NCBI GenBank assembly: GCA_938030585.1
Contig: CALHIA010000092.1
Span: 1-38,161 of the forward strand
Direction of reading: 5' to 3'
Source of the DNA: an uncultured Candidatus Saccharibacteria bacterium
GTDB lineage: Bacteria > Patescibacteriota > Saccharimonadia > Saccharimonadales > Saccharimonadaceae
Length of the DNA stretch: 38,161 nucleotides
Part shown: positions 24,598 to 34,788 of the stretch, in pieces
Layout: every line of letters starts with the position of its first letter
Position numbering within the stretch: position 1 is the stretch's first letter
Notes under the pieces: generated by a model
What the model was told of the DNA's origin: nothing
What the model saw: only the letters and a program-made list of their open reading frames with translations
Databases searched by the model: none
Made by a program: the position numbers and the translations under genes

Positions 24598-24683
24598 TGG
24601 TGCCCGAAACAGGACTTGAACCTGCACCTAGAAGCTAGACTAGCACCTGAAGCTAGCGCGTCTGCCAATTCCGCCATTCGGGC
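24598..24683 (-). tRNA. tRNA-Leu (CAG)
   Basis: GCCCGAA/TTCGGGC acceptor stem, GGCGGAATTGGCAGACGC D arm, CTAGC-TTCAGGT-GCTAG anticodon arm, long variable arm, GTTCAAGTC, encoded CCA. Confidence 0.97.
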
Positions 24684-29382: not shown

Positions 29383-30702
29383 TTAGCGAAGTTTTTTACG
29401 GCTAGAAAGATAAAGACCAGCAGTTGTAACAATAGAACCAAGACCGAAGGCAGAGCTAATTACGGTTTCAGGACCGGTTTTTGGCATTTCCTTTGGAAGT
29501 TCTTGTTTTGGTTTTTCTGGGTTTGGAGTAACTGGAGTTACTGGTTTTTCTGGGGTATTTTCACAGGTTTTCTTAACGTAAACATCTGCGCTACCTTGAA
29601 CAGCAAAACCATTAGCCGAAGCCTTAGCCCAGTTAATCAAACGGTTATTACCACAAATAAGATTTTCATCGACAACCTTAGCAGTGAAACGGACATAACC
29701 ATCACCATTAATATTGTAGCCACCAATATTCAAACCACCATTAATAACGGTGTTGGAATCAGTAGTTAGACCATCTTTGTGTTTTGAGGTAAATAATTTA
29801 GTAGTACCATTAACATATTGCATGTTCTTTGGCAAAGAGTCGCTTACCACAACATCCTTAACGGCAGAAGCGTTAAGGTTCTTGTAGTGAATTTGATATT
29901 CGACAGAGTCACCAACCTTGGCATCAACGGAAGTTTTCCATTCCTTATCGCCAAGCATACGAACCTTCTTAGTAATAGAGGTGTTTTCGAAAACTGGTTT
30001 AACCTTAATAGTGACATAACCAGCATAGTTGTAACAACCAGGGAGGTTACCATCTAATTTATCATAACCAACTTTCACACCACCATTTACGATAGAGTCA
30101 GATAAGGTAGTACCATTCTTAAAAATGTTATTTTCAAAGGTAGCAGAACCTTCAACATAGTCAAGGTAGAAAGCACGACCATCGGCGCTCTTAAGATTCA
30201 AAGAATCCCAGTAACGAGATGGAGTTGCATTCGAGGCATTAATGAAGCCAGAAATACGAGCAGTCTTAGAAACCACAGTTGGTAAAGAAATTTCAGTGGT
30301 GACATCTTTAGCTACAGCGTTAACACCCTTAGGGTTATTGTTGTGAACATAGAGACGAACTACGTAAGTTTTACCTTCTTCAACGTTAACATCACCGATG
30401 TTCCAAACGTTGTTTTTGCCATTGTTGCCAGTAGCTTCGTCGCGAATACCCAAGAAGCTGCGTTCATCGTTTAATGGCATAATGACACCGGCCTCTTTTT
30501 CCTTAGCGGAGATAGAAGAACCGTCGTCCTTGATAGAGTTCATGACGATCTTGTCGCCAAGTTTACCAGCGTTAATGTCAGCGATAGTGTAAGTAGCGCG
30601 ACCGCCAGCGTTATCACCCCAACCAGATACAGTTGCAACAGTAGCAAGACCAGCAACAGTCACGGTAGCAGCGATGGATGCAAATTTGAATGCTTTTTTC
30701 AT
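29383..30702 (-). CDS. Secreted surface protein with DUF11-like Ig domains and LPxTG-like C-terminal anchor
   Basis: Start ATG 30702 (AAGGAG RBS), signal peptide, ITKKVR...VGDSVEYQIHYKN...VVVSDSLP DUF11-like pattern, Pro-rich stalk, MPKTG plus hydrophobic stretch plus RKKLR. Confidence 0.85.
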   Translation of the reverse strand: MKKAFKFASIAATVTVAGLATVATVSGWGDNAGGRATYTIADINAGKLGDKIVMNSIKDDGSSISAKEKEAGVIMPLNDERSFLGIRDEATGNNGKNNVWNIGDVNVEEGKTYVVRLYVHNNNPKGVNAVAKDVTTEISLPTVVSKTARISGFINASNATPSRYWDSLNLKSADGRAFYLDYVEGSATFENNIFKNGTTLSDSIVNGGVKVGYDKLDGNLPGCYNYAGYVTIKVKPVFENTSITKKVRMLGDKEWKTSVDAKVGDSVEYQIHYKNLNASAVKDVVVSDSLPKNMQYVNGTTKLFTSKHKDGLTTDSNTVINGGLNIGGYNINGDGYVRFTAKVVDENLICGNNRLINWAKASANGFAVQGSADVYVKKTCENTPEKPVTPVTPNPEKPKQELPKEMPKTGPETVISSAFGLGSIVTTAGLYLSSRKKLR

Positions 30703-30763: not shown

Positions 30764-30907
30764 AATCTAAATCTTTTTCTTCTAGCCAAATTGTTAATTT
30801 TCGTCTATGCCACTGAAATCGAATCGTCTCAAGAGTAAACATGAATTACCCGGCGGCCTGAGCCGCCAGGGTAATTAAGGTACAACATAGATGTAGATAA
30901 GTTGTAC
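30764..30907 (-). repeat. Downstream arm of long-range nested inverted repeats, with local hairpins
   Basis: 30810-30831 is a 19/22 inverted match to 33734-33755. 30887-30906 matches 33687-33704 (18 nt with a 2-nt gap). GC-rich hairpin at 30844-30876. Confidence 0.85.
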
Positions 30908-30916
30908 TGAAGTTCA

Positions 30917-32263
30917 TTACTGGACTTCGTCTAGGACGTCATTACCTTCGGCAATGTCGTCAACCTTAACTCCGTTTTTGTCTCTGTACTCAGCTGATTG
31001 CGGCTGAGTTTCTGTAGCGTAATCTTTTCGATTTTCATACGCTGCTTCAGATTCCTCGATACTTCTGCCCTGATCTCGAGTCGGAGTTTCCGGTTTTACT
31101 TTCTCCGGTCTCTCATGACCTCCATCCGTGCGAACCGCTGGGTCCGTAGGCTCGAAGGCATCAGTACCGACGGTAGCATTACCACCACCTATCTGAGCTC
31201 CGCCGTTATTAACGGGGTCCTGAGAAGGCTTCTTCTCAGGTTGACTCTCATGATGGTTATTTCCGCCACCGCCACCACCGCCACCTCTACGGCGACGTTC
31301 AGTACTTCTCTCAGTCTCTGACTCCTTGGTAGAAGACTCAGTAGAAGAGTCGGTAGACGTCTGAGTTGAAGACTCCTTGGTGCTAGACTCTGTTTGCTTT
31401 TGCTTCTTCTCGGTAATCTTCACCTTGATAAGCTCTGGACGCTTATCGTGTACGTTAATTCCAATCTTGAAGATCTCGGTGCCAGCTTTATTTACATAAG
31501 CTAGCACTAAGGCGTCACGAGTAAACTCGTAGTGCGCCTCGGTAAGCGTCGTGAGTTTGGCGGAATCAGTATTCGCCAAACTCAGTGGATAATGGTGATT
31601 TGTAGTCACCAATTGTACTCCTTGGTTGATAAGCCGATCTCTAAGCCACAATGTAGCTACGCCGAGCTTGAGCTGTCTATCGTTGATATACAGCTTTCCG
31701 CCCTCCTCTCGGAGATAGTTCTGACCACCAGTTCCGTCCTTCATGAATCTGTCATATTCAAGTTGTGCCTCATTTAACCAGGGGTTAATCTGAGGGAGAG
31801 TAGTTCCATCACTCAAGGTTATATTCGAGAATATTTTAATCCACGATTGAGTACATACATAATTTGTTAGAACTTCCTGGTTATCCTCTGTAATCATGAT
31901 AGCTACTTCGTCTTCGCTATACTTCTCGCCATCCTTCGTTCCGTGAGTCACGGAAAAAGGCGTGGATAGAGCGTCACTAAAGCCAGATTCTGCGACTCTT
32001 TCGGCTGCCTTATTTGGCATCGAATTGTCGCAGAACTCTCGACTGAGTTCTGGGTACGCTTTCGCGTACTCATAGTTATCGAAGTCGAATGTCAATTCTG
32101 ATTTCTCAGCTTCGACATCCTTTGCGGAAAGCGTTTCCGCCTCTGCATCGGCGTGATTTCTTTGACAAGATTTCACACCAACTGCTATAGGCAGTACCAC
32201 AAGTGTAACAGCTAAAATTCCGGCTAAAATCTTTTCGGTTTTGCCAAATCTAAACTTTTTCAT
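30917..32263 (-). CDS. Hypothetical exported/membrane-anchored protein with Ser/Thr-rich, poly-Gly and acidic tail
   Basis: Basic N-terminus, TM ending ...VKSC (possible lipobox), repeated TESSTKES, RRRRGGGGGGGG. GGAGG RBS. Confidence 0.85.
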   Translation of the reverse strand: MKKFRFGKTEKILAGILAVTLVVLPIAVGVKSCQRNHADAEAETLSAKDVEAEKSELTFDFDNYEYAKAYPELSREFCDNSMPNKAAERVAESGFSDALSTPFSVTHGTKDGEKYSEDEVAIMITEDNQEVLTNYVCTQSWIKIFSNITLSDGTTLPQINPWLNEAQLEYDRFMKDGTGGQNYLREEGGKLYINDRQLKLGVATLWLRDRLINQGVQLVTTNHHYPLSLANTDSAKLTTLTEAHYEFTRDALVLAYVNKAGTEIFKIGINVHDKRPELIKVKITEKKQKQTESSTKESSTQTSTDSSTESSTKESETERSTERRRRGGGGGGGGNNHHESQPEKKPSQDPVNNGGAQIGGGNATVGTDAFEPTDPAVRTDGGHERPEKVKPETPTRDQGRSIEESEAAYENRKDYATETQPQSAEYRDKNGVKVDDIAEGNDVLDEVQ

Positions 32264-32481
32264 TTTTTACCTCCTCTTGAGACTCCGTCCTCGATGTGGG
32301 AAATGCGGAGTCTAGTTAAAAACGTAACTACGAACACAATAATCATCATGCAACTTAGCACGATGCCTTCTGTGTTTAGGCTGTCGATTTCAATCTTAAG
32401 CGAGATTATTCCGAAGATAAATCCCACAAGTCTTAAAATCTGACAGTAATACTCCAATACCATCTCCTCGTTCATAGGCAT
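32260..32481 (-). CDS. Small two-TM hypothetical protein
   Basis: 73 aa, two hydrophobic helices, AGGAGG RBS, ATGA overlap with the next gene. Confidence 0.7.
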   Translation of the reverse strand: MPMNEEMVLEYYCQILRLVGFIFGIISLKIEIDSLNTEGIVLSCMMIIVFVVTFLTRLRISHIEDGVSRGGKK

Positions 32482-32487
32482 CTCCTC

Positions 32488-33633
32488 CTAAGCGAGAACT
32501 CGAACTATCACGCATACCATAAAGATAATTGCGACAGCAAAGGCGGCTCTTACAAGATTATTCGCTGTGAATAAATCCGGGAAGATCGTCTCGTCCTCAT
32601 AGTTGTCACCAAAGTCAACAGGATCAAGGATTTCTTCCTCTTCTTCCGTCTCTTCTGGCTCATCCTCAGAGTCTACTTTGGGGTCGACGGTTTTTGGACC
32701 TTGACTCAAAGCTTTCTCTTTTTGAGTAGCAGCTTCCTGAACAGTAGCGGTTCGATAACTATTAATAAGTTCATCAATAGCTATGAATTGATCCTCTGGG
32801 CTAGAGTCACTATTCAGCATATCCAGAATTTCCGACAACGTTTGCTGCTGGATTTCGTTCATGCTAGGGTTAGTGACTTTCTTGGGTTTATCCTCTGCGT
32901 CAGATTTCGGCGCAGAGGTGGTAGTCTGAGCTTCCTCAACCTGAGTGGTTGATTCTTCATCAGTCTGAGTGTTTTTCGGCGGATTTGACTCGGCCTTTTT
33001 ATCCTCAGTTACTGACTTTTGCTCAGTGGTTCCACTTTTGGTTCCTTGGACTACGCTACGAAGTTTTTCATTGTCTTGCTGAAGCTTATTTTGCTGATTC
33101 TGCATGCGCTCAATTTGCTCACGCAGCTTAGCATTTTCGACTTCAGCCTTACTTTTCTTTTTGGCTCTTAACTTAGGGCCGCCAAGATAAGTAAAAGTAA
33201 CTACAACAATCGCAGCTAACCAGGAAAGGAAAGTTACCATTGCAAAATCCATGATATTTAAAATATCATGTTTCATCTGAAAGTAGCTAAAAAGCTGCCA
33301 CCAAACCGGTGTAATTCCGACAAATAGCGCCACAATACAAACCAGTTTCACCTTACGGTAATTCAACTTCCGAAATTCCAGAAGGCTATACACCGCAATC
33401 GCTGCTAACTCGACTACAAAAATCACTGCAGTAAGTTGTGGTTGCAGTTTTGGAAACGCTAGGTTCCCGAAAATTGGTAGTGCCAGCAAGCCTAAACTTG
33501 CTAAACAACCCTTCAGGAGACCTTTTTCAATCGCCGAGAACTCTTGATTAGACTTGGTTTTTCGAGCACATATGGCATAAAGAATGACATATGTAACGAC
33601 AACAATCATAGCTGAAATTAGACAATAACTCAT
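32488..33633 (-). CDS. Hypothetical multi-pass membrane protein (about 5 TM, coiled coil, acidic linker, C-terminal TM)
   Basis: Start moved to ATG 33633 (GAGGAGG RBS), giving 381 aa. Confidence 0.85.
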   Translation of the reverse strand: MSYCLISAMIVVVTYVILYAICARKTKSNQEFSAIEKGLLKGCLASLGLLALPIFGNLAFPKLQPQLTAVIFVVELAAIAVYSLLEFRKLNYRKVKLVCIVALFVGITPVWWQLFSYFQMKHDILNIMDFAMVTFLSWLAAIVVVTFTYLGGPKLRAKKKSKAEVENAKLREQIERMQNQQNKLQQDNEKLRSVVQGTKSGTTEQKSVTEDKKAESNPPKNTQTDEESTTQVEEAQTTTSAPKSDAEDKPKKVTNPSMNEIQQQTLSEILDMLNSDSSPEDQFIAIDELINSYRTATVQEAATQKEKALSQGPKTVDPKVDSEDEPEETEEEEEILDPVDFGDNYEDETIFPDLFTANNLVRAAFAVAIIFMVCVIVRVLA

Positions 33634-33686
33634 TTTGATTCCCTCCTCTGTTGCGCTCGATTTCTTCGAGGCAAAAAAATGTTTCA

Positions 33687-33795
33687 TACAACATCTACAT
33701 CTATAATAAACAGGCGTGAAATTATTTTACGCCTGAGATGATTCGATTTTAATGGACGTCTTGGTAATTCAAGCGGTTAAGCCAGATTACAGACT
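33687..33795 (-). repeat. Upstream arm (5' leader) of long-range nested inverted repeats
   Basis: Complementary in nested blocks to 30764-30906. Local hairpin caggcgt/acgcctg at 33711-33735. Confidence 0.85.
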
Positions 33796-33801
33796 GAGGT
33801 G

Positions 33802-33830
33802 ATTATACTATAAATGGTTGAAAATGTCAA
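33802..33830 (-). promoter_or_regulatory. Perfect-consensus sigma70 promoter
   Basis: Minus strand TTGACA-ttttcaaccatttatag(17)-TATAAT. Predicted +1 is about A33795. Confidence 0.9.
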
Positions 33831-34007
33831 TGGTTATATCACAAGCATTAGCGTTTTCAGAGTGTTAGTTTCAATAGTTATAAAATAATCATAAGTGTTT
33901 TAGATTTTTTAAAAGCAAGTACTGGTGATTTCGTGGAGCTAAAAGAGTGGTTTTACGGTGAGTAGATGGGGGTAAAATTTGCTATAATGGAAGAAAATGG
34001 AGGCAGA

Positions 34008-34544
34008 ATGGGCGGTATAATTGGCAGCTACGGACAAAGTGACCTGATGCGGGGGAATTCCGGTAAACAACAAGAGGCAGGTGACCTATACCAGAGGTCG
34101 CGCGGACAAAATGGGATGGAAGGCAGCTTCGATGTTCGTGGTGGCAGTTCGGAGCCTAACCAGAATAATGGCTTTGGCCGGGTGAATGACCAAGAGACTA
34201 ATCATGGTTATGGTTATGTGAAAAACTCAGAGGAATTGAAGCGTGGTTATGGCGTGGTGGGAGAGCAAGAAAAAGCTCGTGGTTATGGTGTACTAAGTAG
34301 TGGAGGCGAAAGGCGCGGATATGGCGTGACGCCAGGTGACGGATATAAGCGTGGGTATGGAAGGCTTGGCGGAGTAGCTGGTTCTAGTGGTGGAGTATCT
34401 GGTGTGCGACGTGCCCCGAGTGAAACCATGCAACGCGACAAGATGATGGGAATGGGCGGCGGACCTGCAAGTGGCGCTGGTTTTTCTGGTGGTAGTAAAT
34501 CTTCCGGTGGAAATATTAGGCCAGTGATTAAGCCGAATTTCTGA
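34008..34544 (+). CDS. Gly-rich low-complexity hypothetical protein with RGYG repeats
   Basis: Start moved to ATG 34008 (GGAGG RBS; TGCTATAAT at 33980-33988). Six G[YF]G motifs. Confidence 0.7.
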   Translation: MGGIIGSYGQSDLMRGNSGKQQEAGDLYQRSRGQNGMEGSFDVRGGSSEPNQNNGFGRVNDQETNHGYGYVKNSEELKRGYGVVGEQEKARGYGVLSSGGERRGYGVTPGDGYKRGYGRLGGVAGSSGGVSGVRRAPSETMQRDKMMGMGGGPASGAGFSGGSKSSGGNIRPVIKPNF

Positions 34545-34632: not shown

Positions 34633-34710
34633 GGTGGGTGTAGCTCAGTCGGTTAGAGCGTCTGATTGTGGTCCAGAAGGTCGTCGGTTCAATTCCGATC
34701 ACCCACCCCA
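34633..34710 (+). tRNA. tRNA-His (GTG) with encoded G-1
   Basis: G-GTGGGTG/CACCCAC-C-CCA, TAGCTCAGTCGGTTAGAGC D arm, TT-GTG-GT anticodon loop, GGTTCAATTCC. Confidence 0.96.
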
Positions 34711-34713
34711 TTA

Positions 34714-34788
34714 GCGAGTGTAGTACAGCGGTTAGTATACAAGTTTTCCAAACTTGGGATGAGAGTTCGATTCTCTCCACTCGCACCA
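34714..34788 (+). tRNA. tRNA-Gly (TCC)
   Basis: GCGAGTG/CACTCGC acceptor stem, CAAGT-TTTCCAA-ACTTG anticodon arm, GAGAG-TTCGATT-CTCTC T arm, ACCA end. Confidence 0.96.

Follow-up and report, generated by a model that had tools for sequence, protein, structure and literature searches.

In bacterial rRNA operons, the sequences flanking 16S and 23S rRNA pair with each other over 1.5 to 3 kb and are cut by RNase III. To our knowledge, rRNA precursors are the main case in which conserved kilobase-range pairing in bacterial RNA has been established, and the documented cases of mRNA end pairing (hbs, icaR, and the type I toxins) are short and narrowly distributed. Type I toxin mRNAs (hok/Sok and aapA1/IsoA1) form long-distance interactions between their 5' and 3' ends, and the pairing in icaR reportedly covers the Shine-Dalgarno (SD) region. 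Invertible DNA segments are known from phage Mu (the G segment, with Gin) and from Salmonella (hin). Here, we describe a locus in a 38,161-nucleotide (nt) stretch of DNA from an uncultured Candidatus Saccharibacteria bacterium (contig CALHIA010000092.1, positions 1 to 38,161; hereafter the window), in which a block of three genes, the cargo, is enclosed by two complementary arms. One arm lies in the leader upstream of the block, the other lies between the block and a downstream gene with a DUF11 domain, and together they are predicted to close the intervening RNA into a panhandle.

Excerpts of a report on Bacillus subtilis link an interaction between the untranslated regions (UTRs) at the 5' and 3' ends of the hbs mRNA to ribonuclease protection (PMC5737220). 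In Staphylococcus aureus, the 3' UTR of the icaR mRNA pairs with its 5' UTR, which excerpts of the corresponding paper connect with translation control and with a mention of RNase III (PMC3868564), and a paper on timPR (PMC13000454) is related to the type I toxin cases. The element resembles the rRNA stalk, the UTR pairing of hbs and icaR, and, in a compact version from another genus (G887), a type I toxin mRNA, and it fails defining features of each. It belongs to a known kind, intramolecular RNA pairing over long distances as a control of processing or stability, and is unusual in its span, its conservation, and its modular cargo. In the literature on Saccharibacteria, Nanosynbacter, and TM7x RNA and transcriptomes, we found no description of the panhandle, and the available portions of PMC11623550 and of a TM7x transcriptome preprint make no mention of the structure.

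Results

Two long-range helices enclose the cargo genes

All features of the analyzed locus lie on the minus strand, and coordinates are those of the whole window. An earlier note on this DNA had proposed that the leader pairs in five nested blocks with the region behind the third cargo open reading frame (ORF), starting at the predicted +1 of a perfect promoter. The TTGACA-17-TATAAT promoter was located at 33830-33802, and the two longest blocks were borne out. Counted directly, the block 33755-33734 with 30831-30810 contains 19 Watson-Crick pairs, 1 G-U, and 2 A-C, and an inverted-repeat search stretched this core helix to 30 nt at 83% (30810-30839 / 33726-33755). The innermost block, 33704-33687 with 30906-30887, comprises 12 of 12 exact pairs, a 2-nt bulge, and 6 bp more; this inner helix has a z of 8.2 against shuffles and begins, as the note had stated, 10 nt past the TAA stop codon of ORF3 (30919-30917). 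Co-folding of the two arms on the minus strand yielded a gain of -20.5 kcal/mol, where 200 dinucleotide shuffles gave -4.0 ± 2.8 (z -6.0). The corresponding plus-strand values were -27.3 and -10.1 ± 3.3 kcal/mol (z -5.2). The core of the observed pairing is real and far beyond chance. Both of the arm hairpins that had been described between the two helices, 33735-33711 and 30876-30844, are also present.

The outer part of the proposed structure fared differently. The first two blocks (33795-33777 with 30790-30764) were absent from the minus-strand minimum free energy (MFE) structure, and in strand-neutral scoring they gave z -1.35 and p 0.99 in the window and reached p<=0.05 at 0 of the 60 representative loci of our covariation set, which had been kept from 79 loci by k-mer dereplication. 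An outermost helix beginning at +1 is not supported; the 5' end is predicted to fold into a local hairpin instead. The intervening 4-bp block, 33758-33755/30805-30802, needs a clade-specific T, where other lineages have GACGACC.

The arms recur around different cargo in three genera

A search of the genus with the whole region covered 369 genomes, 156 of which matched. About 20 genomes matched over the full cassette or a large part of it, with identities of 74-94%, while in more than 100 others the matches were limited to the two core-helix strands, on the same strand and 2.5-2.7 kb apart. Seventy-three further regions were extracted, and 97 loci were examined for arms. Both arms were found on one strand, 1.5-2.9 kb apart, at 82 of these 97 loci; the 15 misses were 7 single-arm loci (several of them cut by contig ends), 6 full-length loci with a 3' arm but without a 5' arm at E<=1e-3, one locus with only the 3' arm (L004), and one with neither arm (L005). 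The order of elements is constant, from an extended -10 promoter through AGTCT, the terminal hairpin P1, the 5' strand of the core, the hairpin H5, the 5' strand of the inner helix, and the ribosome-binding site to the cargo and its stop codon, followed by the 3' strand of the inner helix, GYACMTT, the hairpin H3, the 3' strand of the core, a tail motif, and the DUF11 gene. Across loci, the typical cargo is a protein of about 200 amino acids (aa) with 5 or 6 transmembrane segments plus a single-pass protein of 450-650 aa. Within the genus, the locus is single copy and syntenic, always upstream of the same DUF11 gene; two copies with identical arms in one genome (L053 and L054, on contigs C14 and C9 of G020) may reflect a real duplication or an artifact of assembly or binning.

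With a covariance model built on the 3' arm, divergent forms were retrieved from two further genera in the family, in 2 of 147 genomes outside the genus. In the second genus (g266, which includes G853), 37 of 59 genomes matched in both arms only, 2.0-2.4 kb apart. Among 18 extracted regions plus the reference, the core differs in sequence from that of the first genus and is again complementary at 14 of the 14 loci where both arms were found. In the third genus, the genome G887 carries a compact module of ~440-467 nt, with a cargo of ~200 nt containing a 30-aa hydrophobic ORF. Its two copies (L136, G887:C1:347300-352300; L137, G887:C1:315400-320400) are 97% identical, lie ~32 kb apart in different contexts, and each consist of a promoter, the 5' arm, the 30-aa hydrophobic ORF, and the 3' arm; the module was not found in four other genomes of its genus. 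The 438-nt RNA folds as a panhandle of -112.7 kcal/mol (z -4.76), and 0 of 100 shuffles were as stable. Past an in-frame TAA, a second hydrophobic stretch follows the G887 ORF in the same frame, a layout that recalls the 73-aa ORF2 of the window. The expectation that paired arms recur around different cargo was confirmed at 82 loci of the genus, 14 loci of the second genus, and the two G887 copies, with a cargo that ranges over all loci from a 30-aa peptide to three genes and with the paired stretches 0.3-3 kb apart.

Of the 369 genomes searched in the genus, 209 contained the tail motif, a near-invariant 24-nt sequence, nearly always once; among the high-quality genomes, 149 of 248 did. A reversed-pattern control matched once. 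In an order-wide draw of 401 genomes, it was detected (<=2 mismatches) in 4 of 4 genomes of this genus and in 0 of 397 from other genera. Many of the genus genomes without a match to the motif are the larger ones (~0.9-1.2 Mb), an indication that the element may be confined to a subclade. Searched against the window's own genome, the arms returned only chance 12- to 14-mers and no repeat family, and no other long inverted repeat with arms <=6 kb apart in that genome was comparable (8 matches, one of them a tRNA pair).

Both long-range helices co-vary

Scored over 32 pair columns in the 60 representatives, the core helix was canonical in 84.8% of cells, versus 28-53% when the partner was slid by 1-3 columns, and 17 of the 32 pairs showed double-sided changes. 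One pair switches between A-U (32 sequences) and C-G (28) without exception; others alternate among C-G (42), U-A (15), and U-G (3), between G-C (54) and A-U (6), or between A-U (50) and G-C (9). The inner helix has unrelated sequences from lineage to lineage and keeps its pairing, over 7-18 bp. Its strands scored a mean of 21.5 with their own partners versus 15.1 ± 2.7 with non-cognate ones, and against shuffles the median z was 2.44 (p<=0.05 at 37 and p<=0.01 at 21 of the 60 loci), versus -0.25 in a non-complemented control. Compensatory changes at homologous loci, whose absence would have counted against the earlier note, were found for both long-range helices. MFE dimers of the arms contained an intermolecular helix of >=12 bp at 60/60 loci and two such helices at 59/60, and the core helix measured 17-34 bp at 60/60. 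At the level of predicted base pairs, this comparison shows that the arm pairing exists, is conserved, and co-varies.

The arms are conserved and the cargo diverges

Identities to 11 close relatives served to compare constraint: they were 93-100% for the arms (mostly 99-100%), 90-98% for the DUF11 gene, and 78-94% for the cargo ORFs, except for a single ORF at 100%. Median synonymous divergence (dS), which covers ORF2, ORF3, and the DUF11 gene, was 0.11 for DUF11 and 0.34-0.40 for ORF2 and ORF3, ~3-fold higher, and divergence falls sharply at the arms. Since the arms are near-invariant next to genes with such dS values, they are, by this measure, under much stronger constraint than the neutral sites on either side. 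Per-gene identities can be mosaic, as in one relative (L009) with 100% for ORF2, 91% for ORF1, and 88% for ORF3. These patterns suggest that the cargo has a history different from that of its flanks and more divergent, as would fit recombinational exchange of alleles. The idea of an exchangeable or mobile cassette therefore stands only in part: a cargo dS ~3 times that of DUF11 between near-invariant arms speaks for exchange, but the locus is single copy and syntenic upstream of the same DUF11 gene and hence not freely mobile within the genus.

Features of the locus

The coordinates of the individual features are collected in Table 1.

Table 1. Features of the panhandle locus, in order of transcription
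Feature	Position (strand)	Remarks
Promoter	TTGACA 33830-33825, 17-nt spacer, TATAAT 33807-33802 (-)	12/12 consensus matches
Predicted +1	~33795 (-)	Within conserved CAGTCT
P1, local hairpin at the 5' terminus of the leader	33758..33794 (-)	GTCT/AGAC closes GTAAT/ATTAC; in the MFE structure
Core helix, 5' strand	33726..33755 (-)	Conserved 17-bp heart 33750-33734
H5, 5'-arm hairpin	33711..33735 (-)	5' strand can alternatively pair with the 3' arm
Inner helix, 5' strand	33687..33704 (-)	In the 5' UTR, ~55 nt upstream of the likely ORF1 start
Cargo ORF1	32488..33633 (-)	Polytopic membrane protein, coiled-coil region, ~6 hydrophobic segments
ORF1 start	33633 (-)	Likely ATG, after GGAGG; longest possible ORF from 33687; 381-399 aa
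Cargo ORF2	32260..32481 (-)	73 aa, two hydrophobic segments
Cargo ORF3	30917..32263 (-)	448 aa; N-terminal anchor or signal; low-complexity Ser/Thr/Gly-rich C-terminal part
Inner helix, 3' strand	30887..30906 (-)	Followed by conserved GYACMTT motif, 30883-30877
H3, 3'-arm hairpin	30844..30876 (-)	G+C rich; without downstream U-tract
Core helix, 3' strand	30810..30839 (-)	
Tail motif GACGAAAATTAAMAATTYGGCTAG	30782..30805 (-)	Near-invariant, 24 nt, directly 3' of the core helix
X2 segment AAATCGAA	30747..30754 (-)	Can pair locally with 30823-30816
DUF11 gene start	30702 (-)	Likely ATG, preceded by GAAAGGAG
DUF11 surface-protein gene	29383..30702 (-)	Pfam DUF11, 3.4e-06; sortase-type C-terminal tail; Atlas clusters Saccharimonadota

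The leader between the promoter and the cargo ORFs measures ~160 nt, and the spacer between ORF3 and the DUF11 gene measures 200 nt. None of the three cargo ORFs matched a Pfam family at the family cutoff, and an Atlas search with ORF3 gave no functional lead. ORF2 is confined to the window's clade among the 13 loci with ORFs listed, and ORF3 was found in only 4 of 60 relatives, at 27-37% identity. Every cargo protein inspected at the 13 loci contains hydrophobic segments, and the DUF11 gene is kept 3' of the 3' arm at all 13. The neighborhood upstream of the locus varies between lineages. In the window, it holds a divergently oriented ORF (33966-34544, plus strand) for a Gly/Arg-rich protein of 192 aa with repeated GYG-type motifs and no Pfam family, which is 83-93% identical in DNA sequence in close relatives, followed by tRNA-His and tRNA-Gly at 34634-34788 (plus strand), ~0.8 kb upstream of the promoter; a tRNA-Leu lies farther downstream, at 24598-24683 (minus strand).

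Local hairpins and alternative folds

P1 closes through GTCT (33794-33791) with AGAC (33761-33758); its flanks, AGTCT and AGACG, are conserved, and its interior is variable. In the alignment fold of H5, 4 of 5 predicted pairs have compensatory changes, and three pairs are changed on both sides in 22-29 of the 60 sequences. For H3, 7 of 8 predicted pairs have compensatory changes. Through tandem G-U pairs, the core continues into the 5' strand of H5, which makes H5 an alternative to a lengthened core of 24-34 bp. The four-way junction suggested in the earlier note is accordingly the MFE structure at 14 of the 60 loci, while the others extend the core to 24-34 bp instead. Many lineages have an extra 5'-UTR hairpin, GGAGG/CCTCC (SD-like and anti-SD-like), placed between the inner-helix strand and the ribosome-binding site and often followed by TGTTTAT; at this site, the window has CTCGA/TCGAG instead.

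The 5' arm has at its foot the sequence GACGAnnATTAAnA, to which the first 14 nt of the tail motif are similar. The similarity is direct rather than inverted, and the two copies, 33758-33745 and 30805-30792, lie at the foot of the core on both arms. The motif GACGAMMATTAA occurs in the window's genome at this locus only. We rejected the tail motif as a promoter because no conserved -10 lies at a fixed distance. The X2 segment farther downstream can pair with 30823-30816, a part of the core 3' strand that is otherwise paired with the 5' arm.

Transcription and ribonucleases

Of the 60 representatives, 59 have an extended -10 motif (TRTRnTAhAAT) upstream of the 5' arm, and none has one in the stretch from the 3' arm to the DUF11 start. 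In the window's cargo-DUF11 spacer, neither a promoter nor a terminator was called. H5 and H3 were rejected as intrinsic terminators: a T-run is not conserved, and neither hairpin was called in the terminator scan of the window. Because the promoter lies only upstream of the 5' arm and H5 and H3 are not terminator-like, the DUF11 gene is probably co-transcribed with the cargo. A 244-nt metatranscriptome contig covers 30651-30878, from the DUF11 start through the core 3' strand into H3, without differences; it carries no weight, as it may derive from DNA and does not show ends. The window's genome has genes for RNase Y, RNase J, and RNase III (the last as a PF14622 match of 128 bits on contig C42), while RNase E/G was not found there in our searches.

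Discussion

The arms may form a processing and protection structure

We give about an even chance to the reading that the arms act, within a polycistronic transcript, as a panhandle for RNase III processing and for protection of the ends. The panhandle structure is well supported, and its function is what we infer. A single polycistronic transcript would run from the promoter and leader through one to three fast-evolving membrane- or secreted-protein genes and the 3' arm into the DUF11 gene, with the arms as its 5' UTR and first intergenic region. In this RNA, they would pair across 1.5-2.9 kb by the conserved 17- to 34-bp core and by the lineage-specific inner helix of 7-18 bp, which would close directly around the coding block, with one hairpin per arm between the two helices. 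The long duplex would serve as an RNase III substrate, and cutting it would part the upstream cistrons from the DUF11 mRNA. The ends of the cargo mRNA would stay tied by the inner helix and would thereby be protected from RNase J and 3' exonucleases; the new 5' end of the DUF11 mRNA could refold with X2 into a 5' stem-loop that presents the invariant 24-nt motif as its loop. The outcome would be differing stabilities and output for two parts of one operon, with the logic of the rRNA operon stalk applied to an mRNA.

Several observations weigh against this reading or against placing the pairing in the sense strand. The G887 copies are followed by unrelated genes, and, judging from them, separation of cistrons cannot be a universal function; since they share no downstream gene, pairing of the ends would be the common denominator. 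Six full-length loci have the 3' arm and no 5' arm at E<=1e-3, and the invariant tail motif is without an assigned partner or binder. In the 17-bp heart of the core (pair columns 9-25), the non-Watson-Crick cells include 37 that read A-C on the mRNA strand; one position accounts for 25 of them (of 60 sequences) and a second for 10 (of 60). The dominance of G-U is limited to the last core pair and the extension, and the core wobbles do not decide the strand. The sense strand co-folds better at only 35 of the 60 loci (Wilcoxon p 0.28), and in the window itself the antisense strand does. H3, with many U-G/G-U cells and few A-C cells, favors the mRNA strand. We assign the long-range pairing, very probably, to the sense transcript, because sense RNA must exist for the genes to be expressed. 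Furthermore, the inner helix, H5, and H3 keep their pairing through sequence turnover, which argues for base-paired single strands and not for a protein-binding site.

Comparison with described systems

The earlier note's proposal of a structured-RNA scaffold with ORFs in its loop, outside Rfam, is supported. Searched with Rfam 15 at gathering thresholds, the whole window returned only three tRNAs, and the best matches of the two arms at E<=10 scored 17 bits (cutoff 100) and 15.9 bits (cutoff 72). A chance origin and group I/II introns were rejected on the evidence of membership tests. We also rejected an integron cassette with attC sites: the complementary strands lie 1.5-2.9 kb apart and do not form a local site, no tyrosine recombinase was found in the 92%-complete genome, and the element is single copy per genome.

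As in the rRNA stalk, the flanks of a product pair at kilobase range within one primary transcript, and the duplex is of a size for RNase III. A long-range flank duplex of about two helical turns or more is present at all 60 loci (17-34 bp), and the enzyme is encoded. In contrast to the stalk, the loop is variable protein-coding mRNA, the cleavage is a prediction only, and there are a lineage-specific inner helix and a hairpin junction in addition. The hbs mRNA shares with the element the end-to-end pairing, in an organism that likewise has RNase Y and RNase J, but it is short and monocistronic, whereas here up to three genes and a further downstream cistron are involved and the pairing co-varies across hundreds of species. 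The likeness to icaR is that the 5' UTR and the 3' UTR of one mRNA pair at long range. Covariation indicates that the 5' UTR pairs 3' of the coding sequence, with both strands outside ORFs and co-transcription predicted. Unlike in icaR, neither helix contains a ribosome-binding site: the window's GGAGG (~33646-33642) lies 40 nt downstream of the inner helix, and the SD of the G887 fold lies in a loop.

A panhandle that closes an entire message, which in G887 encloses a 30-aa hydrophobic ORF, recalls the type I toxin mRNAs. The window's cargo, however, consists of three larger proteins, and its locus is single copy and syntenic within the genus; a small hydrophobic ORF of ~60 aa or less, as expected of such toxins, is found only in the G887 module. 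A consensus scan, which cannot exclude a promoter, detected none on the opposite strand of that module. Like invertible segments, finally, the locus has inverted repeats around a gene block of ~3 kb behind a fixed promoter. It differs from them in having no recombinase match, one gene set in one orientation, and no inverted arrangement among 96 loci, and its repeats include parts that vary in sequence yet are conserved in pairing.

Alternative explanations

Two other readings also place the arms' function in RNA. The 5' leader, acting either in cis or as a short RNA that terminates past H5, could compete with X2 for the 3' arm and so act as a riboregulatory switch that toggles the fold of the DUF11 leader, and hence its translation or stability, with no need for an RNase III cut. 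We consider this possible but unlikely. It would make use of the ability of the distal core 3' strand to pair with either the 5' arm or X2 (own-locus mean 13.3 versus 10.9 ± 2.5 for non-cognate segments, with long lineage-specific examples), of the resemblance of X2 to the 5' arm (direct repeat D9), of the mutual exclusion of H5 and the extended core, and of the TGTTTAT that follows H5 in many lineages. However, only about half of the 60 representatives show the X2 pairing clearly, the T-rich run past H5 is not conserved and the window's H5 was not called in the terminator scan, the co-varying inner helix beyond H5 would be without a role in a short-leader model, and the G887 copies lack a common downstream gene. 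The end pairing could also act as a translational lock of the type I toxin kind, keeping a new membrane-protein message inert until processing, as in hok and aapA1. The G887 panhandle around its 30-aa hydrophobic ORF, in two 97% identical copies in different contexts that are missing from four congeners, would suit a lock, as would the hydrophobic segments in all cargo proteins inspected. Yet ribosome-binding sites lie outside both long-range helices, no opposite-strand promoter and thus no candidate antitoxin RNA is predicted on the G887 module, and proteins of 381-448 aa together with a 73-aa one are not a small toxin; we regard the lock as distinctly improbable.

Other readings assign a role to the DNA. 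If the arms were conserved mainly as anchors at which homologous recombination swaps divergent alleles of the cargo, with RNA pairing secondary, the ~3-fold excess of cargo dS over the flanking DUF11 gene, the mosaic identities in close relatives (100/91/88% in L009), and the abrupt drop in divergence at the arms would all be accounted for. Anchors have no need of mutual complementarity or co-varying hairpins, though, and cannot explain an inner helix that changes its sequence while still pairing or arms kept far beyond the level of neighboring coding sequence across the genus (tail motif in 209 of 369 genomes), so that anchoring as the main role is very unlikely. Somewhat tentatively, both roles might be combined in a modular "expression cradle," an RNA scaffold whose arms are a processing and protection structure as well as DNA homology anchors for cargo exchange; we hold this to be possible but unlikely. 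A purely DNA-level feature, with invertase sites that flip the cassette, as the earlier note had considered, or two operators for one looping DNA-binding protein, would be in keeping with inverted repeats around a ~3-kb segment just downstream of a promoter and with core wobbles that do not favor the mRNA strand, and a single binding site in two opposite copies would likewise seem to co-vary. Against it, the window's genome, which is 91.8% complete, has no match to Resolvase (PF00239) or Phage_integrase (PF00589). The cargo is on the promoter strand at 82 of 82 loci in the genus and 12 of 14 in the second genus, where the two exceptions are ambiguous and have large sense ORFs too. No inversion joints were seen in contigs of four public runs, from a set of 20 runs that each contained <=0.19 of the sampled words. 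The inner helix and hairpins pair despite sequence change, unlike a protein-binding site, and the conserved tandem G-U next to the core would be C-A mismatches on the other strand. A DNA-level explanation is thus highly improbable, and inversion in particular is unlikely in the absence of both a recombinase match and any inverted cargo locus. As a separate observation, no tyrosine recombinase (PF00589) at all was detected in this assembly, which is 92% complete, so that not even a Xer-type enzyme was found.

Implications for Saccharibacteria

The panhandle structure spans up to three genes and co-varies in three genera or more and in over 200 species. Its conservation exceeds that of every adjacent protein-coding sequence, and it encloses the most variable genes of a surface-protein locus, in an obligately epibiontic organism that relies on its surface to live. 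PMC11623550 states that Saccharibacteria were without genetic tools until a short time ago and describes transformation of N. lyticus by allelic exchange, which makes the predictions testable. The locus thus offers a natural system for studying long-range mRNA folding under translation, the part played by RNases III, J, and Y in operon output in Patescibacteria, and constant control of hypervariable genes. If the "expression cradle" is true, it would couple the hypervariability of surface and membrane proteins to a constant post-transcriptional control.

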